A DNA stretch of 64,000 nt from Acidobacteriota bacterium (GTDB taxonomy: Bacteria > Acidobacteriota > Vicinamibacteria > Fen-336 > JAGNNV01). The notes beneath the pieces are model-generated. The model searched no databases and had not been told where the DNA came from. It saw only the letters and a list, made by a program, of their open reading frames with translations. The translations under genes were made by a program, and so were the position numbers. The DNA is taken from contig JAQBHL010000041.1 in assembly GCA_032127745.1 (NCBI GenBank), positions 10,230-74,229 on the forward strand, read 5' to 3'. Positions 3,591 through 31,958 of this stretch are shown here, in pieces (the stretch's first letter is position 1; each line of letters begins with the position of its first letter).

Positions 3591-4322
3591 TCAGGCCCCC
3601 GCCTTCAGGTGGCTCTTGGTGATGGTGAGTTCCACCCACAGATCGACGAGGTCGCGCAGGGTTCGAAAGACCCGGGGGAAGTTGAAGAACTGACTCTTCC
3701 CGTACGTCCGATGGTAGTGATGTACCGGGACTTCCGTGATCTTGAACTTGTAGTCGTGGACCTTCTTCATCAGCTCCACGCAGATGACGCCGGAGGAGCG
3801 GTTCAGCTTTACTTTGTCGAAGATGCTTTTCCGCATCAGACGAAAGTCACAGTCCACGTCCCTCACCTTCAGGCCGAACGCCAGCCTCACGAAGTGGTGA
3901 TACACGCGCCCGATCCACTTCCGGTGAAGGGGGTCATTCCGGGAGATTTTGTACCCGTTCACGAAGTCGATGTCGGCGGAGTAGGCGTCGAGGAGAAGGG
4001 CGAACTCCCTGGGGTCGTACTGCGCGTCTCCATCGGTGTAGAGGACCAGTTCCTTGGAGGCGGTCTCAAACCCGGTTCGCAGGGCGCCGCCGTATCCTCG
4101 ATTCTCCTGGTGGTGAACCACTTTGAGCCAGGGGTTCACCCGGGCCATTTCGTCGAGGAGTTCGCCGGTGTGGTCCGGGCTGCCATCGTTGACCACGATG
4201 ATCTCGTAATCGTCCGAGTAACGCCGCACCGTCATATGGGCCAGAATCACGAGGCTCGCGATCGTTCCGGCGTCGTTGTAGGCGGGAAAGAAGACGGAAA
4301 CGGAGGGACGAGGCTTTTCCAT
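3591..4322 (-). CDS. Glycosyltransferase family 2 (soluble, about 244 aa)
   Basis: SVFFPAYNDAGTI..IVVNDGSPD..YTDGDAQYD is a GT-A fold with a DxD motif. The start is taken at Met6 (MEKPRPSVSVFF); the ORF stop is 1 nt from the epimerase start. Confidence 0.85.
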   Translation of the reverse strand: MEKPRPSVSVFFPAYNDAGTIASLVILAHMTVRRYSDDYEIIVVNDGSPDHTGELLDEMARVNPWLKVVHHQENRGYGGALRTGFETASKELVLYTDGDAQYDPREFALLLDAYSADIDFVNGYKISRNDPLHRKWIGRVYHHFVRLAFGLKVRDVDCDFRLMRKSIFDKVKLNRSSGVICVELMKKVHDYKFKITEVPVHHYHRTYGKSQFFNFPRVFRTLRDLVDLWVELTITKSHLKAGA

Positions 4323-4341
4323 CGGACTTGTCTGCAAACGT

Positions 4342-6717
4342 TTATTTTCCCTCTTCGCGACGGGTTTTGAGGAACGCGTTCACAATCTCCGGTTTCCTGA
4401 GGAGCAAGGCGATGGTGAGGAAGCCAAGAAAGGCGACGAACACACTGGGGACAAAGAGGCGTGGCGCGTACCGCAGATGAACCGGGGTTCTCTCCGGAGC
4501 CAGCACTCGAATCCGGCCGGACAGGTCCGAGAGAGGCGCGTCGGCGCGCCAGCCCGGCAAAAACGGAACGGCCACGTCGACGGTTTGCGCCGCCTCAGAG
4601 TGGAAAGTCAACCGCCCTCCCGGATCCGGCCCACGGTCGCGCTCCACCGGCATCGTTCCCGAGACCAGGGGCCTGGCGCCCATAACTCGGAACACCCGGA
4701 TCTGGGGTGTGGGCGCTATCTCCTGAAACGCCGGTTGGGAGAAATAGGCCGAGAGTCGGGATGCGTGAAGGTTGAATCCGTCCTGGGTTTCCACCCCGAG
4801 GTCGGTGAGCCGCATGAGTGGCGAAGGCTTCCCGGCTTCGGCCCGCGCCTTGATGATGATCGCGTCCGCGCGGTAGGAGGGTGACGACACCACCGCGGTC
4901 GCCGAAGTCGGCTGGAGGGTGCCGATCAGGATCTCGCGTTCGCCGTTGACCCGGGCAAGGACATCCAACGGCGCTTGAGGCATGGAGCCGAAGCTCAGGG
5001 TGATGTTCTTGAGCCTCAGAAACGGCAGGGCAAACACGCGCCTTGCCCCTGGTTCAAGCACCACCTCGAAACCCTCCTCGCCCGGCGCGCGAACCAGATC
5101 GGCGGTCTGCACCTGGATCGCGTCGATGGACCAGTCGCGAAGCAATTGGATGTCGGGAGTGAGCGAACGCTCGGTGAGGAAGCCGCGAGCCCCCATCTCC
5201 CCCAGCACCCGCCGCACCGATACCGGCGCCATGGGGTCGTACCCGTTCGCCTGAACTCTCGGAGCGAGCGCTCCATAGCCCGCGAACCCGAGATCCAGGG
5301 CCAATTCGGAGGGGAAGGAACGGACGAGGGTGAGAACCCGCGGCTCATGGCCCAATTCGGCCAGGGCGTGATCGACCGCGCGGCGGGTCGGAGTTCCGCC
5401 CACGAGCTGAGAGCGCGTTGGGGCATCCTTGAACACTTCGCGACTGGAGGGTTGGAGGGCGAAGGAGACCGCGAGCGGAAGGAGAAAGACTCCAGCTGCT
5501 ACGTCGCTTGCGGCATCGGCCAGCGCGAAGTAGGTGATCAACGCAATCGCATACACGCCCACCGCGGCGGCCAACCGTTCCGGAAGACCGCCGAGCGTCG
5601 CGGCGGCGATTGAAAGAACCCCCACGGAGGCCAGCGACGCCACCAGGAAGTAGGCCCGGAGTTGACGGCCTCTGCGTGTCTTCCTTTCCCGCCACTGTTC
5701 ATCGAGGGCCAGCCCCGCGAGGGCGGCGAGAGCAAACTCGAGAACCAGGGGCAAAGCGCCGGGAGCGAGGAGCGGTCCCCGGCCCACCTGAAGAGCCAGG
5801 GACGAGAGAACGGCAAGAAGGAGAACCCGCACCGGCAGGCGCTCGAGGAGAAGGGGCAGACTGGCCAGGGCAAGGCTCGCCGCCGGGGTGTGGGTCACGG
5901 TGTTCAGGATGAGTCCGGTCAGACCCGGGACGGACTCCGAGGCGCTCTCGGCGACAAGGCCCGTCACCTGTCGCCCGGCGGACGGGAGTAATTCCAGCGC
6001 GGGCAGCCACTGCGGCGCCGACAGGGCGAGTCCGATGAGGATGGCCAGCACGGTGGCGAAGCGCGACGGCGTGCGAGGGGAACGGCCCAGCGTGTGCCCC
6101 AGGAGGAGGCGGCCAAAGAGCAATGCGCCTCCCGCCCGCAGCGCCTCCGGTGAACCGGCAAAGACAAGAAGAGCGATGGACACCCCCAGGCCAATCAGGC
6201 GCGTAGAGGACGAGCGATTCATGTGGGATTCGGCAGCCAGCATGACCAGGGGCAGCATGGGCGCGGCCACCAGGGTGGCCGTGTCTTCGAAGTGGCTCAG
6301 CAGATAGGGGCCGTAGGCGAAGGACAAGGCACCCACGAAGGCTCCGGGAGCGCCCACGCCCAACCGCTTCAGGTACAAGAAGGTGAGGAAGCCGGCCAGG
6401 GAAAGCGAGATGACCACGAGGGCCTGAAAGGCGGAGAAGGGATCGAAGGGGGCGAGGAGAATGGTCAGGGGATAGAGAACTCCGCCCCTATAAGCGGCCA
6501 GGAGCGGGGTGCCCAGAAATTCCCTGGTGTTCAGGAAGGGCAGGGAAAGATCGCGATAGGCCCGGAAGGCCTCGGTGCGCAGGGGCAGGTGAAGAGCGAC
6601 CCCATCGCCGGGTCCAAGAAGCCGGTGCTCGAGAAGCGGCTCGAGGTATGCGAGGAGCGGAAAGACGGTGAGAACGACGAGGGCGAAGACGTCGGCTTTG
6701 AAGTAGGCCCGTCTCAA
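4342..6717 (-). CDS. YfhO-family polytopic membrane protein (GT-C-like glycosyltransferase family)
   Basis: The N-terminal region ..LPLRTEAFRAYRDLSLPFLNTREFLGTPLLAAYRGGVLYPLTILL.. matches the YfhO signature. Many TM helices are followed by a large C-terminal periplasmic domain. The first 110 codons of the listed ORF overlap the upstream GT2; TTG at 6717 overlaps that gene's TGA (TTGA). Confidence 0.8.
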   Translation of the reverse strand: MRRAYFKADVFALVVLTVFPLLAYLEPLLEHRLLGPGDGVALHLPLRTEAFRAYRDLSLPFLNTREFLGTPLLAAYRGGVLYPLTILLAPFDPFSAFQALVVISLSLAGFLTFLYLKRLGVGAPGAFVGALSFAYGPYLLSHFEDTATLVAAPMLPLVMLAAESHMNRSSSTRLIGLGVSIALLVFAGSPEALRAGGALLFGRLLLGHTLGRSPRTPSRFATVLAILIGLALSAPQWLPALELLPSAGRQVTGLVAESASESVPGLTGLILNTVTHTPAASLALASLPLLLERLPVRVLLLAVLSSLALQVGRGPLLAPGALPLVLEFALAALAGLALDEQWRERKTRRGRQLRAYFLVASLASVGVLSIAAATLGGLPERLAAAVGVYAIALITYFALADAASDVAAGVFLLPLAVSFALQPSSREVFKDAPTRSQLVGGTPTRRAVDHALAELGHEPRVLTLVRSFPSELALDLGFAGYGALAPRVQANGYDPMAPVSVRRVLGEMGARGFLTERSLTPDIQLLRDWSIDAIQVQTADLVRAPGEEGFEVVLEPGARRVFALPFLRLKNITLSFGSMPQAPLDVLARVNGEREILIGTLQPTSATAVVSSPSYRADAIIIKARAEAGKPSPLMRLTDLGVETQDGFNLHASRLSAYFSQPAFQEIAPTPQIRVFRVMGARPLVSGTMPVERDRGPDPGGRLTFHSEAAQTVDVAVPFLPGWRADAPLSDLSGRIRVLAPERTPVHLRYAPRLFVPSVFVAFLGFLTIALLLRKPEIVNAFLKTRREEGK

Positions 6718-16343: not shown

Positions 16344-17270
16344 ATGTTCGAGATTCTAAAGAACCCAAATTTCGACTTCCTCGGCAAGACGAAGTACTTC
16401 GTCGCTCTGAGTCTCACCGCCATCCTGGGTGGCTTCGGATACATGGTGGCGAACGGCCTCTATTTCGGGGCCAACCCGAAAGGTTACGGCGTCGAGTTCT
16501 CGGGTGGAACCCAGCTCATTCTCCACTTCGAAAAGACTCCCGAAATCGATCGGATCCGCGCCGCGATCGCCGACGCCACCATCCAGACCTACGACGATCC
16601 GGCCAAGAATCAGGTCCTGGTGAGAATCGCGGCCGCCGATGAGGAAAACCTCGACCAGGCTGCGAATGCGGCCAAGGCGGCGGTCGCGGTCCAATACCCG
16701 GAAAACCGGATCCTGGAGTCCTCGTCTGAAATCGTGGGGCCCACCGTGGGCGCGGACCTTCGGCAAAAAGCGATCCAGCTCACGGTCTGGGGCCTGCTCT
16801 TTCAGTTGCTGTACATTACGTGGCGCTTCGGGGGGGCCATCTGGGGCGCCGCGGCCACCTTGGCGGTGTTTCACGATGTTCTGGTGACCCTCGCCTGTCT
16901 CGCCGTGTTCGGCTACGAGATCACGCTGAATATCATCGCCGCCCTGCTGACCCTCGTGGGCTATTCGGTCAACGACACCATCGTCATCTTCGATCGCGCC
17001 CGAGAGAACCTCAAGACGAAGAAGAAGGATTCTCTGGCAAAAGTGCTGAACGACTCGTTGAATCAGACGCTGACCCGGACCCTGATCTCGAATGGCACCA
17101 CGTTTCTGGCCGTTCTGGGCCTCTATCTGTTTGGCGGCGAGGTCCTCCGGGGCTTTGGCTTCACCATGGCGGTGGGCATTCTGGTAGGCACATATTCCAC
17201 CATCTATATCGCCAGCCCGGTTGTGGTCTGGTGGCGTCAGCGTCAGGCAGGCAGAGGCAGGGCCGTCTAG
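16344..17270 (+). CDS. secF: Protein translocase subunit SecF
   Basis: ..FSGGTQL.., C-terminal TM bundle ..YSVNDTIVIFDRARE... Confidence 0.95.
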   Translation: MFEILKNPNFDFLGKTKYFVALSLTAILGGFGYMVANGLYFGANPKGYGVEFSGGTQLILHFEKTPEIDRIRAAIADATIQTYDDPAKNQVLVRIAAADEENLDQAANAAKAAVAVQYPENRILESSSEIVGPTVGADLRQKAIQLTVWGLLFQLLYITWRFGGAIWGAAATLAVFHDVLVTLACLAVFGYEITLNIIAALLTLVGYSVNDTIVIFDRARENLKTKKKDSLAKVLNDSLNQTLTRTLISNGTTFLAVLGLYLFGGEVLRGFGFTMAVGILVGTYSTIYIASPVVVWWRQRQAGRGRAV

Positions 17271-17422
17271 CCGCCTCCGGTTCCGTGAAAGGACGTATGC
17301 CTGGCCCTGAGCCCCTCAGACTGGGCCAATCGCGGGCCACCGGAGCGACTGTGGTCGGGGGGTAGACTCCGCGGACTCTCCAGATGTGGCAGTCTTCTTG
17401 CTGCAGCTCGGCAGAGTCGCCT

Positions 17423-18211
17423 ATGACCGAGAACCTCCAGCCTCAAGAAGACCAAGCCGAGCTCTTCTCTCTGTTCGCGGGAGAGGTGCGCGACTCCAAG
17501 GGTCGAGGACGATGGTTCTCGGTGTCGGTGGGGCTTCACAGCGCTCTGGTCCTGGCTCTGCTCCTGTCTCCCCTCTTCTACCCGGACGAGAGTCCGCCGC
17601 CGGTCGACTACCTTCGGGTCCTGATCTACAATCCGCCCCCGCCCCCGCCCCCGCCGCTGCCCCGGGGCGCCTCGAGCAAGCCGGTCGAAAGGGCCCCGGA
17701 AAAAACGGGGGCCAAGCCTCCCGATCCGGACGTTCTGGTGGAACCGGTCCTGCCGGAGGATCCCAAGCCGATTGAACCGGAGAAGGGCATCGACCCCCTG
17801 AAGCTGTTCGGCGTGGAGAATGGTTCGGATGCCGGATCCGAGGCTGGCATGGAGGCCGGGGTCGAGGGCGGAACCGTGGGGGGAACCCTTGGCGGCACCC
17901 TCGGCGGCGTGTTCGGCGGCACCGGTGACAGCCCGGTCATGGACTACGACCAGCCCCCCCGCCTCCTGAAACAGACCCGGCCGGTCTATCCGCAGGAAGC
18001 GTTCATCAAAAAGATCGAAGGCGTCGTAACCCTGGAGATTCTCATCGGGGTGGACGGCAAGGTGCGCCGGGCGCGCGTGTTGCGGTCCGTCCCGCAGCTC
18101 GACGCCGCGGCCCTCCAGACCGTCCGGCAGTGGGTCTTTGCCCCCGCCATCAAGGGCGGGCGCCCGGTGCCGACGACAGCGCAGGCTCCGGTGAGCTTCC
18201 GAATCTACTGA
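17423..18211 (+). CDS. TonB-family energy transducer (stand-alone)
   Basis: An N-terminal TM, a Pro-rich spacer (PPPPPPPPLP) and a C-terminal TonB domain ..YPQEAFIKKIEGVVTLEILIGVDGKVRRARVLRS... The start is taken at Met14; the listed start is 17384. Confidence 0.75.
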   Translation: MTENLQPQEDQAELFSLFAGEVRDSKGRGRWFSVSVGLHSALVLALLLSPLFYPDESPPPVDYLRVLIYNPPPPPPPPLPRGASSKPVERAPEKTGAKPPDPDVLVEPVLPEDPKPIEPEKGIDPLKLFGVENGSDAGSEAGMEAGVEGGTVGGTLGGTLGGVFGGTGDSPVMDYDQPPRLLKQTRPVYPQEAFIKKIEGVVTLEILIGVDGKVRRARVLRSVPQLDAAALQTVRQWVFAPAIKGGRPVPTTAQAPVSFRIY

Positions 18212-18385
18212 GGCTCTCGAGGGGCGCGCCCGTCCTCTGCGGAGGCTAAAGGTGTCCACGACCCGGGACAGGGTCAGGCCCAAGTCCTCAGGGCAGGGGC
18301 GTCCGGCCGTGGCGCGTCTTTTGCTCTGACCGACTTGCCGTGACCTAATATGAGACTGTCTTTTTTTTCTGAGGAGCGCCTCTCG

Positions 18386-18814
18386 ATGACGCGATTCCGC
18401 TTTCTTCTTGCCACCTGTCTTCTTCTCTCCGTCTCTCCGGCCCATGCCGACGATACGAAGGATGCCAAGAAGGAAATTGCCTTCGGCATCAATGTCGCTC
18501 GGCGCGGACTCTGGCATGAAGCGCGATTCCGATTCGAGCGGGCGGCGGCGAAAAATCCGGACTCGGCTTCGGCTTTCAATAATCTCGGGGTCACCCTCGA
18601 GCAGCAAGGGGAGTTCGAAAAGGCACGGGCGGCCTACGAGCGCGCTTTGCAGCTGGAGCCCAAGAACCTCTCCATCCAACAGAACTACGATCTGTTCCGC
18701 GAAGCCGACGAGAAGCGGAACCGCAAGCTTAAGAAGGACGCGACGCCCCCGAAGGCGACGCCCACCCCTGACCCCGCGGCTCCCATAGGACCCGCAGTGG
18801 AGACGGTTCGATGA
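18386..18814 (+). CDS. Secreted TPR-repeat protein
   Basis: Signal peptide MTRFRFLLATCLLLSVSPAHA then ..AFNNLGVTLEQQGEFEKARAAYERALQLEPKN... A GAGGAG RBS lies 9 nt upstream of ATG 18386. Confidence 0.7.
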   Translation: MTRFRFLLATCLLLSVSPAHADDTKDAKKEIAFGINVARRGLWHEARFRFERAAAKNPDSASAFNNLGVTLEQQGEFEKARAAYERALQLEPKNLSIQQNYDLFREADEKRNRKLKKDATPPKATPTPDPAAPIGPAVETVR

Positions 18815-19554
18815 GTAGTCCAGTTCGCTTCCTCGGCCTCGCGGCTCTCATTGCTTCCGGCTGCGCCTCCGCTCTCGAGGTCCCTATCGAGACGCCGCTC
18901 AAGTCGAAGCTTGACGTCTCCAAGTTCCGCCGGGTCCTGGTGGCCGGTTTCGTCACGGACCTGGTGGATGATGGCATCGACCTCTCCCCCGAGACCTCTC
19001 GCCTTCTCCAGAACCAGCTCCGATCCGCATCGAAGCTCCAGGTGCTTGAACCCGATCGGCCCCCCTTGAACCAGGAACTGGCGAAGGCCTTCAAGCCGTC
19101 GGAAGATGTTCGAGTCACGCGGGAGGATCGGGACCGTTACCGGGCGGCGGGCGAACGGATCCTGGGTGACGGCGCTTTCTGGAGGAAACTCGGAGAGGAG
19201 TACCAGAACCCTCTGATCGTGACCGGCAAGCTCGCCTTCGAGGAGCAGAATCGAGCCGGGTTTCAGCAGGAGTCGTCCCTGGCTCGCGATAACCGGGGCC
19301 GCGTACGCGAGGTTCGAGGCAATCGGTACGCGGAGCGGAAGGCTTTCACTCTGTCCGCTGATTTTTCTTTCATCGACGGGTCCACCGGCCGGCTGCTCCA
19401 CAAGGAGCGGTTTTCGGAAGAGGTGGTCTACGGGGAGGAACAGAAGGTCTCTCCCTTGTCTTCCTACTTCGAACTTATGGACCGCCTTTTGCCGAATTTC
19501 CTGGGCGTGATCTCGCCTCAGAAGATCCGGGGAACCCGGGTCCTGATCCCCTGA
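18811..19554 (+). CDS. Hypothetical lipoprotein
   Basis: Lipobox ..LIASGCAS... Its ATG overlaps the upstream stop (ATGA). I recognise no family. Confidence 0.65.
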   Translation: MSSPVRFLGLAALIASGCASALEVPIETPLKSKLDVSKFRRVLVAGFVTDLVDDGIDLSPETSRLLQNQLRSASKLQVLEPDRPPLNQELAKAFKPSEDVRVTREDRDRYRAAGERILGDGAFWRKLGEEYQNPLIVTGKLAFEEQNRAGFQQESSLARDNRGRVREVRGNRYAERKAFTLSADFSFIDGSTGRLLHKERFSEEVVYGEEQKVSPLSSYFELMDRLLPNFLGVISPQKIRGTRVLIP

Positions 19555-19637
19555 GTCACTGAAGACCGGGAGCCCGAGCGCCAAAGCCGCCTTTTTCGAG
19601 TCGACGCCTTCTGAGGATGACGATGACCCTGAGCTTC

Positions 19638-22571
19638 ATGAAACGACCGCTGCGGCTGGCCGCGCTGGGCGTGCTGGCCACCCTGCTGGCCCCCATGGCC
19701 TTCGCCCAGTACATCCCGTACTTCGGGAAGAACAAGGTGAACTACGACAAGTTCGCGTGGCGCGTGTACAAGAGTCCCCACTTCGAGGTTTACTACTACC
19801 CCGAGTTTGAACAGCATCTGGGACGGCTCGTCTCCTACCTTGAGAGCAGCTATCAGCATGTGTCCTCGGAGCTCAAGCACGAAATCCAGTCGTCGATCCC
19901 GGTGGTCTTCTACAAGACCCACTCCGAGTTCGAGCAGACCAACCTCTTTCCCGATTTCGTGCCCGACCAGGTGCAGGCCTTCTCCGAGTCCATCCGCAAT
20001 CGGATGGTCATCCCGGTGGACGGCGCTCCCGATCGTCTCCAGGGGCTCATCACTCACGAGTTGACCCATATCTTTGAATTCGACCTGATCCCTCGGGGGC
20101 TGGTGTCGCGCGGCATACCGCTGTGGGTCGATGAGGGCCTCGCCGACTACCTCCGCGGGGACTGGGACTCGCACGATCTGATGACGGTCCGGGACGCGGC
20201 CCTCAACGATCAGATCCCCCGCATGTCGAAGATGCAGGTGGCGGGAGGTCGGGTCGACTACAACCTCGGTCACGCCACCTTCGATTTCATGGCCGCCCGC
20301 TTCGGCAAGGAAGGCATCCGCCAGTTCCTCTACACCCTGCGCAAGAGCATCATCAGCACCTCCAGCGACAGCGTGTACCAGCAGGCCTTCCGGATGACCC
20401 CGAAGGAGTTCGACGAGGCCTTCGAGAAGTGGGTCAAGGAGCGCTTCAAGCCTTTTCGCGACCGCCAGCGGCCGACGGACTACGGCTCGGAAATCTCTCC
20501 TGATCCGGAGAAGACCTCCTATTCGCAGGTCTATGCCTTCGCCCCTTCCCCTTCCGGAGAGGTGGTTGCGGCCATCACGGGAAACCGCAATGACGGGGAG
20601 GCCGACATCGTGGTCCTGTCCACCAAGGATGGATCGGTGGTGAAGAATCTCACCAAGGGCTACACCGGCAGGTACGAGAACATTACCTTCCCCGGCGAAG
20701 GCTTCGTCACCGGTCGAACCATCGACTTCTCCCCCAACGGCGACGCGGTGGCTTTCATCGGAAGAACCGGAAAGAAGCGGAGTCTGTTCCTGGTTTCGCC
20801 GCTCTCCGGCGACATCATCAACAGGGTCTCGCTCGATCTCGACGAAGTGGAGTCTCCCTGCATTCTTCCCAACGGGAAGCAGGCGCTCGTGGCCGCCACC
20901 AAGGAGGGAGTGGCCGACATCTACCTGGTGAACCTCGAGACCGGGGAATACAAGAATCTCACCGACGACGCTTTCTTCGACGCCAACCCGCGCATTTCTC
21001 CGGACGGGACCCTGGTGGTCTACAACCGAAGGATCAGCGGAAACAACAAGATCGTGATGTTCCCGCTTGGCAATCCCTCACGGCGCATCGACCTGACCTT
21101 CGGACCCTTCGCCGATTTGGCGCCGTATTTCTCCAGCGATGGCGCGGAGGTGCTCTATTCATCGGACGAAGATGACGGGATCTACAACCTTCGAAGCATC
21201 AACATCAAGACCGGGGTGATCAAGCAGTTCACCGACACGCTGGGCGGGAACATGGCGCCCGCGCCCTTGACCTCCGAAACCGGCGATCGCATCGGTTTCA
21301 TCTCCTACTTCAAGGGCCGATACCAGCTCTACAGCCTCGACCCCTCGGAACCGACTCGCGAGGTGGAACAAACCGTTTCCATAGCACCCAACGAGGTCGT
21401 CGATTTCGAGCCGGACGTGACCCATCAGGTGGTGGCTGAGAACAAGCGACGGAAACGGCTGTTCGAAGGACTCTACCTGGAGGGCCGACCGCCGTTGAAT
21501 ATCGGAGTCACCTCCAATGGGGACTTCTTCGGAGGCACGCAGGTGGCGCTCACCGATGTCCTGGGCGACCAGGCCATATTGTTCACGGCGAGTTCGGTTC
21601 GCGAATTCCGGAACTACGAGGCCCTGTACGCAAACCGCTCGTCGCGGTGGAACTGGGGCGTCGTGGCCTCCGACTTCACCAGGTATTACTTCTCGCCCTA
21701 CAATTATTCACTCTCCTATACGCGCGAGGGCGCGATCGCCACCGAACGCTACACCGGCGCCGTCGGCTTCGCGACCTACCCCTTGGACAAGTTCAACCGG
21801 ATTCAGGTTTCCGCGGGCTACTCGCGAGTCAAGACCGGGTATCAGGATCCCCTGATTCAGGAGCAGATCCTTCAGCAGGCCGCCCAGCTTGGGCAGACGG
21901 TTCCCCTCTACAATGGCAGCGCGCTGCCGGTGACGATCGGCTACACCCGAGAGACAACCCGCTTTCGGGAGTTCGGACCTTTGGCGGGTTCAACCGTCAA
22001 TATGTCCTTTGAGTACTCACCACCGGTCGGATCGTTCCTTTCTCGAAATACGCTGGAGGTCGACGCCCGGAAGTATCTGCGCGTGGGGGGGACGTCGATG
22101 CTCCTGGCCACCCGCATTCGCGGCTTCAGGTCAACCGGAGATCAGCCTCGCTTGTTTGGCTTTGGCGGAAACATGGAGTTGCGGGGCTACAACTACCTCT
22201 CCTTTGTCGGTTCCGAGGGCTTCTTCGCCAACGCCGAGCTCCGAATCCCGCTGATCGACGTGATGCTGACCCCTATCGGGCTGCTCGGGCCCGTGAGGGG
22301 CACTTTCTTTGGCGGGGTAGGCGGCGCCCACTATCCGGGCGAGCCTTTCAAGTTCTGGACCAACGAGCCGGGCCTGTCTTTCGTCAACGATCCTCTATTC
22401 GGTCAGCCCGTGACCGGCCGAAGACTGGTGGACGGCCGCGGCTCGTTTGGGGTGAGCATCGAGGCCTTCTTGCTGGGCCTCCCTATGCACTTCGACTGGA
22501 GCTGGTTCACCGATCTGCAGGTTCGAAGCACATCGTCGCGGTTCCAGTTCTGGATCGGCTACGACTTCTAG
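19638..22571 (+). CDS. Omp85-family outer-membrane protein with N-terminal HExxH metallopeptidase-like domain and PD40 beta-propeller repeats
   Basis: Signal peptide MKRPLRLAALGVLATLLAPMAFAQ (listed start 19617). HELTH..WVDEG gluzincin-like motif. Repeated ..SPDG../..SPNG.. TolB-like blades. The C-terminus ..FGFGGNMELRGYNY..FFANAELRIPL.. ends ..FWIGYDF. Confidence 0.8.
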   Translation: MKRPLRLAALGVLATLLAPMAFAQYIPYFGKNKVNYDKFAWRVYKSPHFEVYYYPEFEQHLGRLVSYLESSYQHVSSELKHEIQSSIPVVFYKTHSEFEQTNLFPDFVPDQVQAFSESIRNRMVIPVDGAPDRLQGLITHELTHIFEFDLIPRGLVSRGIPLWVDEGLADYLRGDWDSHDLMTVRDAALNDQIPRMSKMQVAGGRVDYNLGHATFDFMAARFGKEGIRQFLYTLRKSIISTSSDSVYQQAFRMTPKEFDEAFEKWVKERFKPFRDRQRPTDYGSEISPDPEKTSYSQVYAFAPSPSGEVVAAITGNRNDGEADIVVLSTKDGSVVKNLTKGYTGRYENITFPGEGFVTGRTIDFSPNGDAVAFIGRTGKKRSLFLVSPLSGDIINRVSLDLDEVESPCILPNGKQALVAATKEGVADIYLVNLETGEYKNLTDDAFFDANPRISPDGTLVVYNRRISGNNKIVMFPLGNPSRRIDLTFGPFADLAPYFSSDGAEVLYSSDEDDGIYNLRSINIKTGVIKQFTDTLGGNMAPAPLTSETGDRIGFISYFKGRYQLYSLDPSEPTREVEQTVSIAPNEVVDFEPDVTHQVVAENKRRKRLFEGLYLEGRPPLNIGVTSNGDFFGGTQVALTDVLGDQAILFTASSVREFRNYEALYANRSSRWNWGVVASDFTRYYFSPYNYSLSYTREGAIATERYTGAVGFATYPLDKFNRIQVSAGYSRVKTGYQDPLIQEQILQQAAQLGQTVPLYNGSALPVTIGYTRETTRFREFGPLAGSTVNMSFEYSPPVGSFLSRNTLEVDARKYLRVGGTSMLLATRIRGFRSTGDQPRLFGFGGNMELRGYNYLSFVGSEGFFANAELRIPLIDVMLTPIGLLGPVRGTFFGGVGGAHYPGEPFKFWTNEPGLSFVNDPLFGQPVTGRRLVDGRGSFGVSIEAFLLGLPMHFDWSWFTDLQVRSTSSRFQFWIGYDF

Positions 22572-22671
22572 CCTCCCCAACTGCCGGAAGCCTGGCCGGA
22601 AAAGAAGTTCGTCGGCGCGGCCGCGTTAGGGTAGAATCACGGGCTCTATTTGAGTCTAGACGGAGGCTACC

Positions 22672-22989
22672 TTGGTTTACGCAATCGTCCGCTCCGGCGG
22701 GAAACAGTACCGTGCCGAACCTGGAGCGAAGCTTCAGGTCGATCGGCTTGAGAACAAGGTCGGCGACAAGATCACGTTCTCGGATGTCCTGCTGGTCAGC
22801 ACCGATGCGGGCGTCTCCGCCGGTAACCCGGTTTCGGGCGCTTCCGTGAGCGCCACCGTGGTCGCCCAGATTCGCGACACCAAGGTGCGCGTTTTCAAGT
22901 TCAAGCGCCGCAAGCACTACAAGAAGACGCGCGGCCACCGTCAGTACCTCACGACCGTCCTCGTCGATGTCGACGGCGTCCAGGCCTAA
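22672..22989 (+). CDS. rplU: 50S ribosomal protein L21
   Basis: [15 protein letters not shown]..; TTG start after GGAGG. Confidence 0.95.
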
Positions 22990-23003
22990 GGAGATCCAGA
23001 AAA

Positions 23004-23264
23004 ATGGCTACCAATAAGGGCGGCGGATCCTCTCGCAACGGGCGCGACTCGAATTCCCAACGCCTTGGGGTCAAGGCATTTGGCGGCGAGCTGGTCTCGG
23101 GCGGAAGCATCATCGTTCGACAGAAGGGCACGGGTTTCAAGCCCGGCCGGAACGCGGGCCTGGGCCGGGACCACAGTGTCTTCGCCAAAGTGAGCGGCCA
23201 CGTGCTCTTCGAAGATCACGGCGGACGGGGAAAGTTCATCAGCATCGTGCCGGTCGAGGCTTAA
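23004..23264 (+). CDS. rpmA: 50S ribosomal protein L27
   Basis: [24 protein letters not shown].. Confidence 0.95.
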
Positions 23265-23329
23265 GCGCTTTCCGAAGCGCCTCAAAACCCTCAGTCGAGG
23301 GCTGAAAGCTTCGGTCCAGGGTCTCCACA

Positions 23330-24340
23330 GTGTTCGTCGACCGCGTCAAGATATTCGTAAAGGGCGGCGATGGCGGCCGCGGCTGTTCGAGCTTCCGGCG
23401 CGAGGCCTATGTGCCCATGGGCGGTCCTGATGGCGGCAACGGAGGGGCGGGCGGCCACGTGATCCTGGTGGGTCGGGTCAACCAGAACACCCTCCTGCCG
23501 CTTCGCTTCCATACCGAGTTTCGGGCCAAACGGGGCGGGCACGGCGGGCCGAGCAACCGAACCGGCCGGGACGCCCGCGACACTCGTATCGATGTGCCTC
23601 TGGGGACCATCGTCCGCGAGGAAGGAACAGACCTCGTGATGGGCGAGGTGATAGCGGACAAAGAGGAGCTCCTGATCGCCAGGGGCGGTCGCGGCGGCCG
23701 CGGGAACAAGAGCTATCTCTCGAACACGAACCGCGCGCCCCGAAATGCCGACCCGGGAGAAGCGGGGGAGGAACACTGGCTCTGGCTCGACCTGAAGCTC
23801 CTGGCCGACGTCGGTCTGGTGGGCCTGCCCAACGCTGGAAAATCGACGTTACTGTCCAAGATTTCCGCCGCCAAGCCGAAGATCGCGGACTATCCGTTCA
23901 CCACCCTCACTCCGGTTCTTGGCATGGCCTCCTGGGATGACACGGATTTCGTGGTCGCCGATGTGCCCGGGATCATCGAGGGGGCGTCCACTGGGTCCGG
24001 TCTGGGTCTTGACTTCCTGAGACACATCGAGCGAACGCGGGTGATCGCGCATGTGATCGACGCCTCAGGCCTCTCGGGCCGAGACCCCATTGCCGACCAC
24101 GATACCGTCCGCCGCGAACTCGACGCCTTTTCGCCCGCCCTGTCGAGCCGTCCCCGGGTCATCGTGGCCAGCAAACGCGATCTCGTCCGGGAAGAAGATG
24201 ACCCGCTCCCCGCCATCCGGGCCATCGCGAAGCGAGACGGCCTGGAGTTGTTCGAGGTTTCGGCCGCCACGGGCCAGGGCCTCAAGGAGCTCACGCAATA
24301 CCTCGCGGAGGCCCTTCGGGTTCCGCAGGAAGTGGCCTGA
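23330..24340 (+). CDS. obg: GTPase Obg/CgtA
   Basis: MFVDRVKIFVKGGDGGRGCSSFRRE.. Gly-rich Obg fold followed by a GTPase domain (GLPNAGKST). Confidence 0.95.
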   Translation: MFVDRVKIFVKGGDGGRGCSSFRREAYVPMGGPDGGNGGAGGHVILVGRVNQNTLLPLRFHTEFRAKRGGHGGPSNRTGRDARDTRIDVPLGTIVREEGTDLVMGEVIADKEELLIARGGRGGRGNKSYLSNTNRAPRNADPGEAGEEHWLWLDLKLLADVGLVGLPNAGKSTLLSKISAAKPKIADYPFTTLTPVLGMASWDDTDFVVADVPGIIEGASTGSGLGLDFLRHIERTRVIAHVIDASGLSGRDPIADHDTVRRELDAFSPALSSRPRVIVASKRDLVREEDDPLPAIRAIAKRDGLELFEVSAATGQGLKELTQYLAEALRVPQEVA

Positions 24341-24345
24341 GGCCC

Positions 24346-24900
24346 ATGCGAGTGGGTTTACTGGGCGGTTCCTTTGATCCTGTTCACTACGGTCATCTGC
24401 GGGCCGCACAGTGGTCGCTCGAGAATTTCGACCTCGCGGAGGTTTGGCTCGTGCCGGCTCGGCAATCGCCCTTCAAGGGCCCGGCCATCGCCTCCGGAGA
24501 GGATCGGCGCGCCATGTTGACCCTCGCCACCACCGACCACGAGGCGCTGCGGGTTGAAGAGTGCGAGTTGGGTCGGGCGGCGCCCAGCTACACCGTCGAC
24601 ACGCTCCGAGCCCTGACCGAAAAATCGCCCGGGGACAAGTTCGTTCTGATCCTCGGCTCGGACGCGGCCGCGGGTTTCGATCTGTGGCGCAGCGTCGCGG
24701 AAGTGCGGCGCCTCGCGGAAATCCGGATTCTCCGCCGGCCCGGAGATGTCCCGGCCGGCGATGGCTCGGAAGCGGCCTTTGATGGACTCTCCATTTCCTC
24801 CACCGATCTTCGGAAGACCATCAAGGAAGGGCGGTCCATTCGCTATCTCGCTCCCGAGGGCGTGCGGCATTACATCGAGGAGAAGGGGCTTTACAAGTGA
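24346..24900 (+). CDS. nadD: Nicotinate-nucleotide adenylyltransferase
   Basis: GLLGGSFDPVHYGHL (HxGH). Confidence 0.9.
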   Translation: MRVGLLGGSFDPVHYGHLRAAQWSLENFDLAEVWLVPARQSPFKGPAIASGEDRRAMLTLATTDHEALRVEECELGRAAPSYTVDTLRALTEKSPGDKFVLILGSDAAAGFDLWRSVAEVRRLAEIRILRRPGDVPAGDGSEAAFDGLSISSTDLRKTIKEGRSIRYLAPEGVRHYIEEKGLYK

Positions 24901-25241
24901 ACGCCATGGACTACTGTCGGACCGCTGCCCGGGCGGCCCTGGCCAAGCAGGCCGAGGATGTCGTCGTGCTCGAACTGGCCGAGGGTTCGGGCCTGGCCGA
25001 TGGTTTCGTGATCGCGACCGGCCGCAACCAGAGGCAGGTCGTGGCCGTCGTCGACGCGATCGAAGAGAAACTCCGCCTGGAGGGGGTCAAACCCCGCCAT
25101 CTTGAGGGCTATCCCCGGCGGGAGTGGATCCTGATGGACTACGGCCCGTTCGTGGTCCACATCTTCACTCCCAAAAGCCGTGAGTTCTACGACCTGGAGC
25201 GACTCTGGGGCGGGGCCCGGCGCGAGGAGGTCAGGGATTGA
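24897..25241 (+). CDS. rsfS: Ribosomal silencing factor RsfS (Iojap)
   Basis: ..VVLEL..GLADGFVIATGRNQRQV..DYGPFVVHIF.. Overlaps the nadD stop. Confidence 0.9.
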   Translation: MNAMDYCRTAARAALAKQAEDVVVLELAEGSGLADGFVIATGRNQRQVVAVVDAIEEKLRLEGVKPRHLEGYPRREWILMDYGPFVVHIFTPKSREFYDLERLWGGARREEVRD

Positions 25242-26176
25242 GCCCTGAACCCATGATCGCCGCGTCGAAGGCCATGCTGGCCATCGAGTCCAGCCTGCCC
25301 CGAATCGCGGCCGCTACCGCGCCGGTGGTGATCGAGGGCGAGACCGGTTCCGGCAAGGGCCGGATCGCAGAAGCGCTGCATGGTCTGAGTCTGAGGCGAG
25401 AGGGTCCCTACGAGGTTCTCTCCTGCGGTGCGATCGCCGAATCGCTGGCCGACTCCGAGTTCTTTGGGCACGGGCGGGGAGCCTTCACCCATGCCTTCGA
25501 AGCGCAGGGCGGGAGGTTGGAACGGGCCCATGGGGGAACCCTGGTGCTCGACCATGTCGAGGACCTCGCTCCGGCCATCCAGGCGAAGCTCCTGCGCGCC
25601 ATCGAGGATGGGAAGATCCAGAGGCTGGGCGAGAGTTCGGAGCGTCAGGTGGATGTGCGCTACGTGGCCACCTCCCGCGGGCCACTGAAGGACGCGGTCG
25701 CGCTCGGGACGTTCCGGGACGATCTTTACCATCGCCTTTCCGTGATCACCATACCGGTGCCCCCCCTGCGGGAGAGGATCGAGGACATTCTTCCCCTGGC
25801 CACGGCCTTTCTGGCCGCGGAACGGCGCCGGTCGCGAACACAGGCCGACGGTTTCTCCGACCGGGCGCGACGGATCCTTGAAAGCTATGCCTGGCCCGGG
25901 AACGTGCGCGAACTCCAGTCGGCGATCGAACGGGCAGCCCTGCGCCACGAGGGCGACGGGGTGCTCGATGCGGCCGCGTTCCCCGCGCATCTGCTGACCG
26001 CGGAGACGGTCATTCGCTCGTTCGGATCCGTCCAGCCCACGCTAAAGGAAGTGGAACGAACCTACATATCGTGGGTGCTCGAGAACTCTAGAGGCACGAA
26101 GGCCGAGGCGGCCCGGACGCTTGGCATCTCGCGCAAATCGCTCTGGGAGAAGTGCAAACGTTTCGGGATCGCCTGA
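25238..26176 (+). CDS. PspF-like sigma-54 enhancer-binding protein (AAA+ plus HTH, no regulatory domain) with degenerate GAFTGA and Walker B motifs
   Basis: GETGSGKG Walker A, ..GAFTHA.., ..LVLDHVEDL.., ..FRDDLYHRLSV.., ..WPGNVRELQSAIERA.., C-terminal Fis-type HTH. A TTG start overlaps the rsfS TGA (TTGA). Confidence 0.85.
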   Translation: MSPEPMIAASKAMLAIESSLPRIAAATAPVVIEGETGSGKGRIAEALHGLSLRREGPYEVLSCGAIAESLADSEFFGHGRGAFTHAFEAQGGRLERAHGGTLVLDHVEDLAPAIQAKLLRAIEDGKIQRLGESSERQVDVRYVATSRGPLKDAVALGTFRDDLYHRLSVITIPVPPLRERIEDILPLATAFLAAERRRSRTQADGFSDRARRILESYAWPGNVRELQSAIERAALRHEGDGVLDAAAFPAHLLTAETVIRSFGSVQPTLKEVERTYISWVLENSRGTKAEAARTLGISRKSLWEKCKRFGIA

Positions 26177-31247: not shown

Positions 31248-31958
31248 ATGGAACGAAAACTTTTCGCAGACCTGGTTGAATCGGACGGCAAGGCTCACAA
31301 GCCAAAGAGGAGTCTTGTCTTCATCATCTCTCTGAGCCTCCATGTGGGCGGGTTGCTGGCTTTGTTCATCGTTCCGCTGCTTCAGGCCCAGGAACTTCCC
31401 GAACCCGCGGCCGCCGTGAAGGCCTTCTTTGTGGAGCCCGCCGCACCCCCGCCACCACCACCGCCGCCGCCACCACCCAAGCCGCAGGTCGCACGAGTGG
31501 CTCCGCCTCCACCGCCTCAGGAGACACGGTTCATCGCCCCGGTGGAGGTGCCCCAGGAGATCAAGCCCTCGACCAGCGGTATTGATCTTTCCGGGGGTGA
31601 AGGCGTCGCCGGTGGAGTGGCGGGTGGAATCGTGGGCGGACTGCCCCCGGCTCCGACGCCGCCGCCGGTCCAGGCGGTGCGCGTGGGTGGCAATATTAAA
31701 GAGCCCACCAAAATCAAGAACGTCGCCCCCGTCTATCCCGATATCGCCAAACAGGCCAGAGTTCAGGGAATTGTCATTCTCGAATGCACGATCAGTCCTC
31801 AGGGCCGGGTCACCGACGTGAAGGTGCTGCGCGGCATCCCTCTGCTGGATCAGGCGGGTATCGATGCGGTCAAGCAGTGGCAGTACACTCCCACGCTTCT
31901 GAACGGCGTGCCCGTGCCGGTTATCATGACCGTGACCGTCAACTTCAGGCTCAACTAG
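31248..31958 (+). CDS. tonB: TonB-family energy transducer
   Basis: N-terminal TM, PPPPPPPPPPPKP spacer, C-terminal ..YPDIAKQARVQGIVILECTISPQGRVTDVKVLRG... Confidence 0.85.
   Translation: MERKLFADLVESDGKAHKPKRSLVFIISLSLHVGGLLALFIVPLLQAQELPEPAAAVKAFFVEPAAPPPPPPPPPPPKPQVARVAPPPPPQETRFIAPVEVPQEIKPSTSGIDLSGGEGVAGGVAGGIVGGLPPAPTPPPVQAVRVGGNIKEPTKIKNVAPVYPDIAKQARVQGIVILECTISPQGRVTDVKVLRGIPLLDQAGIDAVKQWQYTPTLLNGVPVPVIMTVTVNFRLN

Follow-up and report, generated by a model that had tools for sequence, protein, structure and literature searches.

What does a protein do that carries a putative peptidase domain in front of an outer-membrane barrel? The question is raised by a gene at positions 19617 to 22571 of a 64,000-nucleotide stretch of Acidobacteriota DNA from contig JAQBHL010000041.1 (the window, in what follows). 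The original prediction had read its product as a gluzincin-like HExxH peptidase domain, a TolB/PD40-like propeller and an Omp85-type beta-barrel without POTRA domains, and profiles and predicted folds supported each of these three parts. With high confidence in the structural and family assignment, we place the protein in the WD40-like (peptidase) Omp85 subfamily on the basis of shared architecture and structural templates. Taken as a whole, this assignment included, the reading that we slightly favor is that of an outer-membrane-anchored periplasmic zinc peptidase, gated by its propeller and acting in envelope quality control or turnover.

The gene is an uninterrupted open reading frame (ORF) of 984 codons, and its predicted position, strand and length of 984 residues were all confirmed. 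The motifs first quoted for it (HELTH, WVDEG, GGNMELRGYNY, ANAELRIP and the terminal FWIGYDF) are present where they had been placed. Its features are as follows.

19617..22571, plus strand: peptidase-propeller-Omp85 gene, 984 residues (list of ORFs)
19617..19706, plus strand: predicted Sec signal peptide, residues 1-30
19707..19757, plus strand: conserved motif with which the mature protein begins, residues 31-47
19758..20486, plus strand: predicted gluzincin (clan MA) zinc-peptidase catalytic domain, residues 48-290 (Foldseek, family profile, Peptidase_MA_2 in relatives)
20055..20069, plus strand: HELTH zinc-binding and catalytic motif, residues 147-151, with H147, E148 and H151
20124..20144, plus strand: WVDEGLA helix, residues 170-176, with E173 as predicted third zinc ligand (conservation and alignment)
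20259..20261, plus strand: Y215, predicted transition-state-stabilizing tyrosine
20514..21365, plus strand: six-bladed PD40/TolB-like beta-propeller, residues 300-583 (Pfam, TIGR02800, TolB structures, predicted fold)
21366..21494, plus strand: linker in the position of POTRA domains, residues 584-626, predicted to be disordered
21495..22568, plus strand: predicted 16-strand Omp85/BamA-type beta-barrel with a terminal Phe, residues 627-984 (predicted fold, Foldseek, PF01103 in relatives)
22179..22190, plus strand: LRGY, residues 855-858, equivalent of the loop-6 (V/I)RG(F/Y) motif

The N-terminal domain has a gluzincin-like fold and an invariant catalytic set

A separate model of the N-terminal domain (residues 30-300) had a predicted local distance difference test score (pLDDT) of 73 and a predicted template modeling score (pTM) of 0.75. 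Foldseek comparison of this model with the PDB gave gluzincins only among the top matches, with M9 and M1 peptidases at E values of 8e-6 to 5e-3 and template modeling (TM) scores of 0.45-0.62. The peptidase domains of the collagenases ColH, ColT and ColG came out best (E values of 8e-6 to 5e-5, TM scores of 0.55-0.60), followed by PepN, LTA4H, ERAP1/2, IRAP and an M61 aminopeptidase. When a profile built from 26 diverse N-terminal domains was searched against PDB sequences, its matches included M9 collagenases (4e-4 to 2e-3) and, at 3e-6, the cold-active M1 aminopeptidase 3cia. In the profile alignment, HELTH lies over HELAH of 3cia, and WVDEGLA over lWLNEGF of M1 and WfdEGtAE of ColG. Y215 pairs with the Tyr of 'VPY' in 3cia and, in the M9 collagenases, likewise with a Tyr; we take it to be the equivalent of the catalytic Tyr of M1 (Y383 of LTA4H).

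Conservation was assessed on 35 full-length relatives that share 24-58% identity with the target. H147, E148, H151, E173, G174, D193 and Y215 are invariant in all 35, and W170 is found in 34. Of the 83 acidobacterial members, at least 76 retain H147, E148, H151, E173, G174 and Y215. Pfam searches of the same 35 relatives matched Peptidase_MA_2 in 20 at E values of at most 1e-3 (best, 5e-18), which supplies the profile support that the original prediction had called for. A few relatives matched Peptidase_M9 (2 of 35), BSP, DUF6055, DUF6782 or DUF2268, several of which are peptidases or predicted metallopeptidases according to their Pfam descriptions. As modeled, the N-terminal domain is thus a thermolysin-like gluzincin fold with a complete catalytic set. 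From the strict selection on every ligand, on the general base and on the Tyr, we infer an active zinc peptidase.

The likeness to M1 enzymes (PepN, LTA4H, 3cia and the tricorn-interacting factor F3) and to the M9 enzymes ColG, ColH and ColT comprises the fold, HExxH, the Glu in W-x-x-E-G-x-A and the downstream Tyr. In contrast with both, the target has the catalytic domain only, about 240 residues long, and its sequence identity to the M1 and M9 structures is 10-15%. The AlphaFold2 (AF2) model of the target contains neither the N-terminal beta domain nor the C-terminal helical (ARM) domain of M1, and a literal GxMEN is absent from the target. There is likewise no M9 activator domain in the model, where 17 mature residues precede the catalytic domain. 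HExxH and the Glu are 21 residues apart in the target, not 18 as in M1. A strand with the pattern [GA]-F-[AS]-E-[PS] is found 23 residues before HExxH, and its Glu, E124, is present in 31 of the 35 relatives. This distance is close to that between GxMEN and HExxH in LTA4H. By the spacing of the motifs, the strand is a lead towards exopeptidase-type substrate binding.

A TolB-like propeller is joined to a BamA-like barrel by a disordered linker

We built a full-length AF2 model on 44 homologues (mean pLDDT, 75.6), in which a six-bladed propeller and a 16-strand barrel were seen. The propeller appears at residues 300-583 as six groups of four strands. Pfam PD40 matched the target at E = 1.5e-8, and the match of the TolB equivalog TIGR02800 spans model positions 197-393, which correspond to the propeller part only. 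TolB crystal structures were matched at 3e-12 by the single sequence and at 4e-18 by the family profile, which makes TolB the best PDB sequence match, and TolB was also recovered by fold when the full-length model was searched with Foldseek. The full-length family profile retrieved TolB and S9 propellers only from the PDB sequences, and nothing for the peptidase or the barrel. Homologues bear precomputed matches to the Tricorn_N and Tricorn_2nd propellers. The target shares its six-bladed PD40 propeller with TolB and tricorn protease; it differs from them in having neither the N-terminal alpha/beta, TolA-binding domain of TolB nor the serine-protease core of tricorn.

The barrel was placed at residues 627-984 and is thus about 358 residues long, rather than the roughly 200 first proposed. 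The AF2 model has 16 strands between residues 627 and 980. Foldseek matched the barrel to BamA of many structures of the machinery for beta-barrel assembly (BAM) at E values of 5e-11 to 1e-9, with TM scores of about 0.6 on the barrel-only chains 7r1v and 7nre. PF01103 was matched by 16 of the 35 relatives at E values of at most 1e-3 (best, 5e-23), so that here too profile support came through the relatives. LRGY lies in a long loop (residues 842-866) between strands 11 and 12 of the model, and we take it for the (V/I)RG(F/Y) hallmark of loop 6 in Omp85 proteins. R856 of this motif, together with E874 and R876, is invariant in the 35 relatives. Of the 83 acidobacterial members, 80 have the R, 76 the G and 73 the Y. 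ANAELRIP occupies residues 871-878, and the protein ends in FQFWIGYDF. On the evidence of the model, the barrel is BamA-like and of the Omp85 type. It has in common with BamA and TamA the 16 strands, the RG(F/Y) of loop 6 and the C-terminal aromatic residue; unlike them, the target has an enzyme and a propeller instead of POTRA domains, and we do not attribute an insertase role to the modeled barrel.

The predicted absence of POTRA domains was borne out, as neither the target nor any of the 35 relatives matched PF07244. The corresponding position is taken by a 43-residue linker (VAENKRRKR..EGRPP), for which the model has neither helix nor strand and a pLDDT below 50 (residues 584-627). It is conserved within the class and not across phyla. 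P599, H603, K610, R611, K613, E617 and G623-R-P-P626 are invariant in the class, with a basic KRRKR patch among the conserved features, and only P599 persists across phyla.

The N terminus, MTMTLSFMKRPLRLAALGVLATLLAPMAFA, has the basic n-region, hydrophobic core and AxA site of a Sec signal peptide, and from such features and conservation we placed the cleavage site between AFA and QY. The surrounding A28, A30 and Q31 are conserved in the 44 homologues. The start of the mature protein, QYIPYFGKNKVNYDKFA, is conserved across phyla; its G37 and N39 are at least 90% conserved across relatives at 24-58% identity, and residues 24-47 have a pLDDT below 50 in the AF2 model. Residues 31-47 might serve in docking, might form a strand paired to a partner or to another domain, or might be regulatory. 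The true start codon is probably that of M3, an ATG at 19623, because GAGG is found 5 nucleotides upstream of it and because an identical protein in public data (P0001) has 982 residues.

The architecture is widespread and was cataloged in 2014

A protein database search returned at least 2,860 homologues. A library of representatives at 50% identity gave 33,618 matches at E values of at most 1e-3, with 1,043 clusters at E values of at most 1e-30, and single collinear alignments cover residues ~10-984 down to about 27% identity. Given these homologues, library matches and collinear full-length alignments, the ORF is not a chance reading. The G+C content of the genomic background is about 62%. 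With each species represented by a single genome, a pattern scan turned up at least 573 relatives. The close relatives all come from metagenome-assembled genomes of Vicinamibacteria or Acidobacteriota, and one distant cluster (31% identity) is from Candidatus Poribacteria. The gene is present once in the window, in which we sought a second copy and found none. The architecture had been thought uncommon, a view that the 1,043 clusters, the 573 or more species-level genomes and its listing in 2014 (PMC4104836) do not sustain.

Heinz & Lithgow defined in 2014 a 'WD40-like' Omp85 subfamily without POTRA domains (PMC4104836), whose listed members include Myxococcus, Flavobacterium/Cytophaga and Vibrio. 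Its Pfam profile consists of PF01103 and PF07676 repeats (Table S2 of PMC4104836), as we found in the target and its relatives. Table S3 of the same study, with about 95 members, lists a BamA/TamA barrel (4k3b/4c00), TolB (2w8b/2ivz) and a 'best aminopeptidase hit', with the templates 1z5h, 4kxd, 3qnf, 4ar1 and 4ar9 and a Phyre2 confidence of about 99%. Our searches with the target returned BamA, TolB, ColH 4ar1, ColT 4ar9 and ERAP1 3qnf and thereby several of these entries, so that the domain order and the structural templates are common to the subfamily and the target. The text of Heinz & Lithgow treats the propeller alone, as a BamA-BamB-like fusion; the peptidase motifs, their invariance and the operon partners were not analyzed there, and the word 'Acidobacteria' is absent from the main text (PMC4104836). 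Their noNterm Omp85 subfamily likewise has no POTRA domains (PMC4104836). A 2024 paper on Leptospira describes the subfamily as having 'divergent WD40 and peptidase domains', and Hanson et al. 2024 count the subfamily among those that 'have not been well characterized' and are 'intriguing targets'. The architecture is thus neither rare nor new. Another candidate identity, the 'Metallo' Omp85 subfamily of Heinz & Lithgow, was rejected because it carries PF00149 (PMC4104836). We take PF00149 to comprise calcineurin-like phosphoesterases rather than HExxH peptidases.

A TPR protein and a lipoprotein accompany the gene in part of the family

The neighborhood of the gene in the window is as follows.

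16344-17270: secF, upstream
17384-18211, plus strand: TonB_C-domain protein with a long Pro-rich spacer, ending 139 nucleotides upstream of the next gene
18350..18814, plus strand: secreted tetratricopeptide repeat (TPR) protein of 154 residues (TPR_2, E = 6e-13, and many other TPR families)
18811..19554, plus strand: predicted lipoprotein of 247 residues, of an unannotated family
22672-25241, plus strand: rplU-rpmA-obg-nadD-rsfS housekeeping block, directly downstream of the target
25238-26176: sigma-54 activator-like gene, after rsfS

The stop codon of the TPR gene overlaps the start of the lipoprotein gene by 4 nucleotides (18811-18814). The N terminus of the lipoprotein, MSSPVRFLGLAALIASGC, contains a lipobox-like LIASGC. 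This protein has at least 6,889 relatives, all named 'hypothetical', and matched neither Pfam nor NCBIfam; its family profile gave no match to a PDB sequence below E = 0.6. The C-terminal third of the lipoprotein is very strongly conserved (SPLSSYFELMDRLLPNFLGVISPQKIRGTRVL). The TPR protein matched generic TPR families, with no BamD model among its Pfam and NCBIfam matches. Operon structure was deduced from gene spacing and synteny. When 17200-23100 was scanned for promoters and terminators, no more of them were counted than in shuffled sequence and none fell at gene boundaries; Rfam and tRNA scans over the whole window had no matches, and no Rfam leader was detected in the 100-nucleotide gap ahead of rplU.

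The order TPR-lipoprotein-target-rplU is kept in related genomes, in which the genes further upstream change from the secF/tonB of the window to dprA/topA. Downstream, the order rplU-rpmA-obg-nadD-rsfS followed by the sigma-54 activator-like gene is kept as well (L001, L003). Both partners are present, directly upstream, at 17 of the 84 loci, with upstream sequence available, where the target is 45-68% identical; these include Marinacidobacterales. Across the 17 loci the lipoprotein shows 45-68% and the TPR protein 49-68% identity. A locus with 87% identity to the target (L013) is without upstream sequence. The 80 loci kept from the pattern scan are all Acidobacteriota by content, although Bifidobacteriaceae or Betaproteobacteria stand in the titles of three records, so the gene context compared here is that of one phylum. 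The conservation of the TPR protein and the lipoprotein with the target in two acidobacterial orders suggests a three-part complex.

A second acidobacterial group of 64 loci, mostly Vicinamibacterales where named, is 41-47% identical to the target. In 53 of them a divergently transcribed AhpC/TSA redoxin gene is found upstream (for instance at 3920-4480 on the minus strand of L058). The longest ORFs have a median of about 1,060 residues in this group vs about 1,005 in the first, and insertions relative to the target come after residues of about 519, 693, 917-931 and 965-971 (L017-L084). Five loci (L024, L038, L046, L051 and L066) are titled 'Betaproteobacteria' or 'uncultured Bifidobacteriaceae'; their copies are 43-45% identical and stand among Vicinamibacterales sequences. 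To our knowledge, Bifidobacteriaceae have no outer membrane. These five bins are probably mislabeled or contaminated.

The TonB-like gene at 17384-18211 was considered as a component of the system and rejected, as it is absent upstream in the other loci examined. A second TonB_C-like segment in the window, at about 31704-31952, is 39% identical to the TonB_C protein over 83 residues.

Proposed function

We propose a barrel embedded in the outer membrane, with the N-terminal part of about 550 residues in the periplasm, tethered below the membrane by the linker. The propeller would serve as a gate or a binding platform that admits only peptides or unfolded chains to the active site and spares folded periplasmic proteins. 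The enzyme would then act on the inner side of the outer membrane, where it would remove or trim envelope proteins that are unfolded or wrongly assembled. Trimming of the exopeptidase type may contribute, given the M1-like set of [GA]-F-[AS]-E-[PS], HExxH, W-x-x-E-G-x-A and Tyr. In the lineage of the target, the protein would probably form a complex with the products of the two co-conserved upstream genes, namely the small secreted TPR protein and the 247-residue lipoprotein. For this mechanism taken by itself, a periplasmic, gated, quality-control peptidase, we regard the chances as evenly balanced.

Each element of the proposal has its own grounds. In an Omp85 barrel, with its even number of strands, the two termini are both on the periplasmic side. 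Together with the loop-6 motif, which implies an occluded lumen as in BamA, and with the precedent of PlpD, this would place the N-terminal part in the periplasm. In PlpD, a patatin-like Omp85 protein of Pseudomonas aeruginosa and the one Omp85-enzyme fusion known to have been examined for its topology, the enzyme domain is exclusively periplasmic, contrary to an earlier secretion model (Hanson 2024). PlpD and the target both have an Omp85 barrel with an N-terminal hydrolase, periplasmic in the former and by our topology also in the latter; PlpD differs in being a homodimeric patatin lipase with one POTRA domain, whereas the target has a zinc peptidase and a propeller and no POTRA. The part of the propeller as a substrate filter is proposed by analogy with tricorn protease, prolyl oligopeptidase and DPP-IV, and Tricorn matches in the homologues are in line with it.

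The quality-control role is drawn from the analogy with BepA at BAM, the functional parallel that we favor. BepA, a zinc protease of family M48, also has a TPR domain; it docks on BAM and degrades stalled outer-membrane proteins. Both cases would thus involve a periplasmic zinc metalloprotease at an Omp85 machine together with a TPR. BepA differs in its family (M48), in being soluble or peripheral, in binding BamA non-covalently and in having the TPR fused to it, whereas the target has its protease fused to the barrel and the TPR on a separate gene product. The gene also has a housekeeping character: it is single in the window, it adjoins rplU-rpmA-obg and relatives occur in at least 573 species genomes.

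Several results weigh against the proposal. The target itself stays under the curated thresholds, with 21.4 bits (E = 2.4e-4) for Peptidase_MA_2 (PF13485) against a gathering threshold of 32.4 bits, 90.5 bits (E = 1e-25, residues 370-572) for TIGR02800 against a cutoff of 343, 20.2 bits (E = 3.4e-4) for NCBIfam Omp85_fam against 200 and 14.4 bits for the BamA equivalog against 297; PF01103 had no match in the target at E values of up to 1. Its family membership is based on the relatives and the predicted folds. We count the N-terminal domain as a peptidase despite the sub-threshold score because the Pfam matches of the relatives, the fold and the profile agree. The GxMEN-like strand was assigned from motif spacing alone. 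At its pTM of 0.52, the full-length model is unreliable in inter-domain geometry, and the orientation of the active site to the propeller cannot be read from it. The second acidobacterial group has no TPR or lipoprotein gene next to the target gene, so that the complex is not family-wide. No observation supports a role of the modeled barrel beyond that of an anchor, and full-text literature searches found no functional study of any family member. Activity, substrates and topology are all inferred.

Alternative functions

The barrel might instead export its own N-terminal passenger in the manner of a type Vd system, giving a surface-displayed or secreted protease with which a soil oligotroph digests environmental proteins. 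Such a topology was raised for Omp85-enzyme fusions by Heinz & Lithgow, after the PlpD model current at the time (PMC4104836). Secreted collagenases are among the best fold matches of the N-terminal domain, and the disordered linker, with its 43 residues, has the length needed to thread through a barrel. However, the PlpD precedent has since been overturned, and some 550 residues with a closed six-bladed propeller would be implausible cargo for a 16-strand barrel. The loop-6 motif of BamA and TamA sits inside the barrel lumen, and the invariant RG(Y/F) of the target family would leave little room there for a passenger segment. The M9 activator domain, needed for the unwinding of collagen, is absent, and the gene has housekeeping neighbors and shows the conservation of a core gene. 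We therefore consider secretion quite unlikely. The function first guessed is a reasonable hypothesis, and its periplasmic, quality-control half is better supported than its secretion half. The protein might also be a paralogue of BamA that assembles outer-membrane proteins, with the propeller in place of BamB or POTRA as a scaffold, the HExxH domain mainly a binding module and catalysis secondary. This would fit the closest barrel structures, which are BamA in various BAM complexes, the conserved hallmark residues of the barrel, the TPR protein and lipoprotein encoded alongside, which resemble BamD and other BAM lipoproteins, and the idea of a 'BamA-BamB fusion' (Heinz & Lithgow; PMC4104836). 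It would have to account for a propeller that is six-bladed and TolB-like rather than eight-bladed as in BamB, for the absence of POTRA, the element of BamA on which substrates and BamD dock, and for a TPR protein of only 154 residues that matched generic TPR families and no BamD model. The five catalytic residues are strictly invariant across phyla, which points to catalysis as the selected function, and we find a role as an assembly factor unlikely.

Very unlikely, in our estimate, is a tether akin to Tol-Pal, in which the propeller would bind a lipoprotein of the Pal/OmpA type and the disordered N-terminal motif would be captured by the C-terminal domain of TolA or TonB, so that barrel and peptidase would be coupled to the proton-motive force or to cell-wall remodeling. 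TolB is indeed the closest relative of the propeller in sequence and fold. The N terminus of TolB is disordered and binds TolA, and the conserved, unmodeled peptide that follows the signal peptide of the target is reminiscent of it; in the window, moreover, a TonB_C-domain gene is found 139 nucleotides upstream of the TPR gene. That gene is not upstream in the other loci examined, however, the N-terminal alpha/beta domain of TolB is missing from the target and no Pal-like gene is adjacent.

A bolder version of the quality-control peptidase that we favor would be a self-contained machine for the disposal of outer-membrane proteins. The BamA-like barrel would recognize the beta-signal of outer-membrane proteins that had stalled or misfolded, open against it and pass the unfolded chain to the propeller-gated, M1-like peptidase for processive trimming, with the TPR protein and the lipoprotein as receptor or regulatory subunits. 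This would amount to BAM plus BepA in one polypeptide, widespread in non-model phyla; as an account of the whole system we think it improbable.

Implications for the family

The subfamily is large, spans many phyla and has kept a complete catalytic set. To what was published, our analysis adds the cross-phylum invariance of the catalytic residues, the M1-like set of motifs and, in two acidobacterial orders, the association of the gene with those for a small TPR protein and an unannotated lipoprotein; these two proteins are concrete candidates for interaction studies. If the target is indeed a quality-control peptidase, the family would provide a second, BepA-independent way to clear failed outer-membrane proteins, and it would be a further case, after PlpD, of an Omp85 barrel reused as the scaffold of a periplasmic enzyme.

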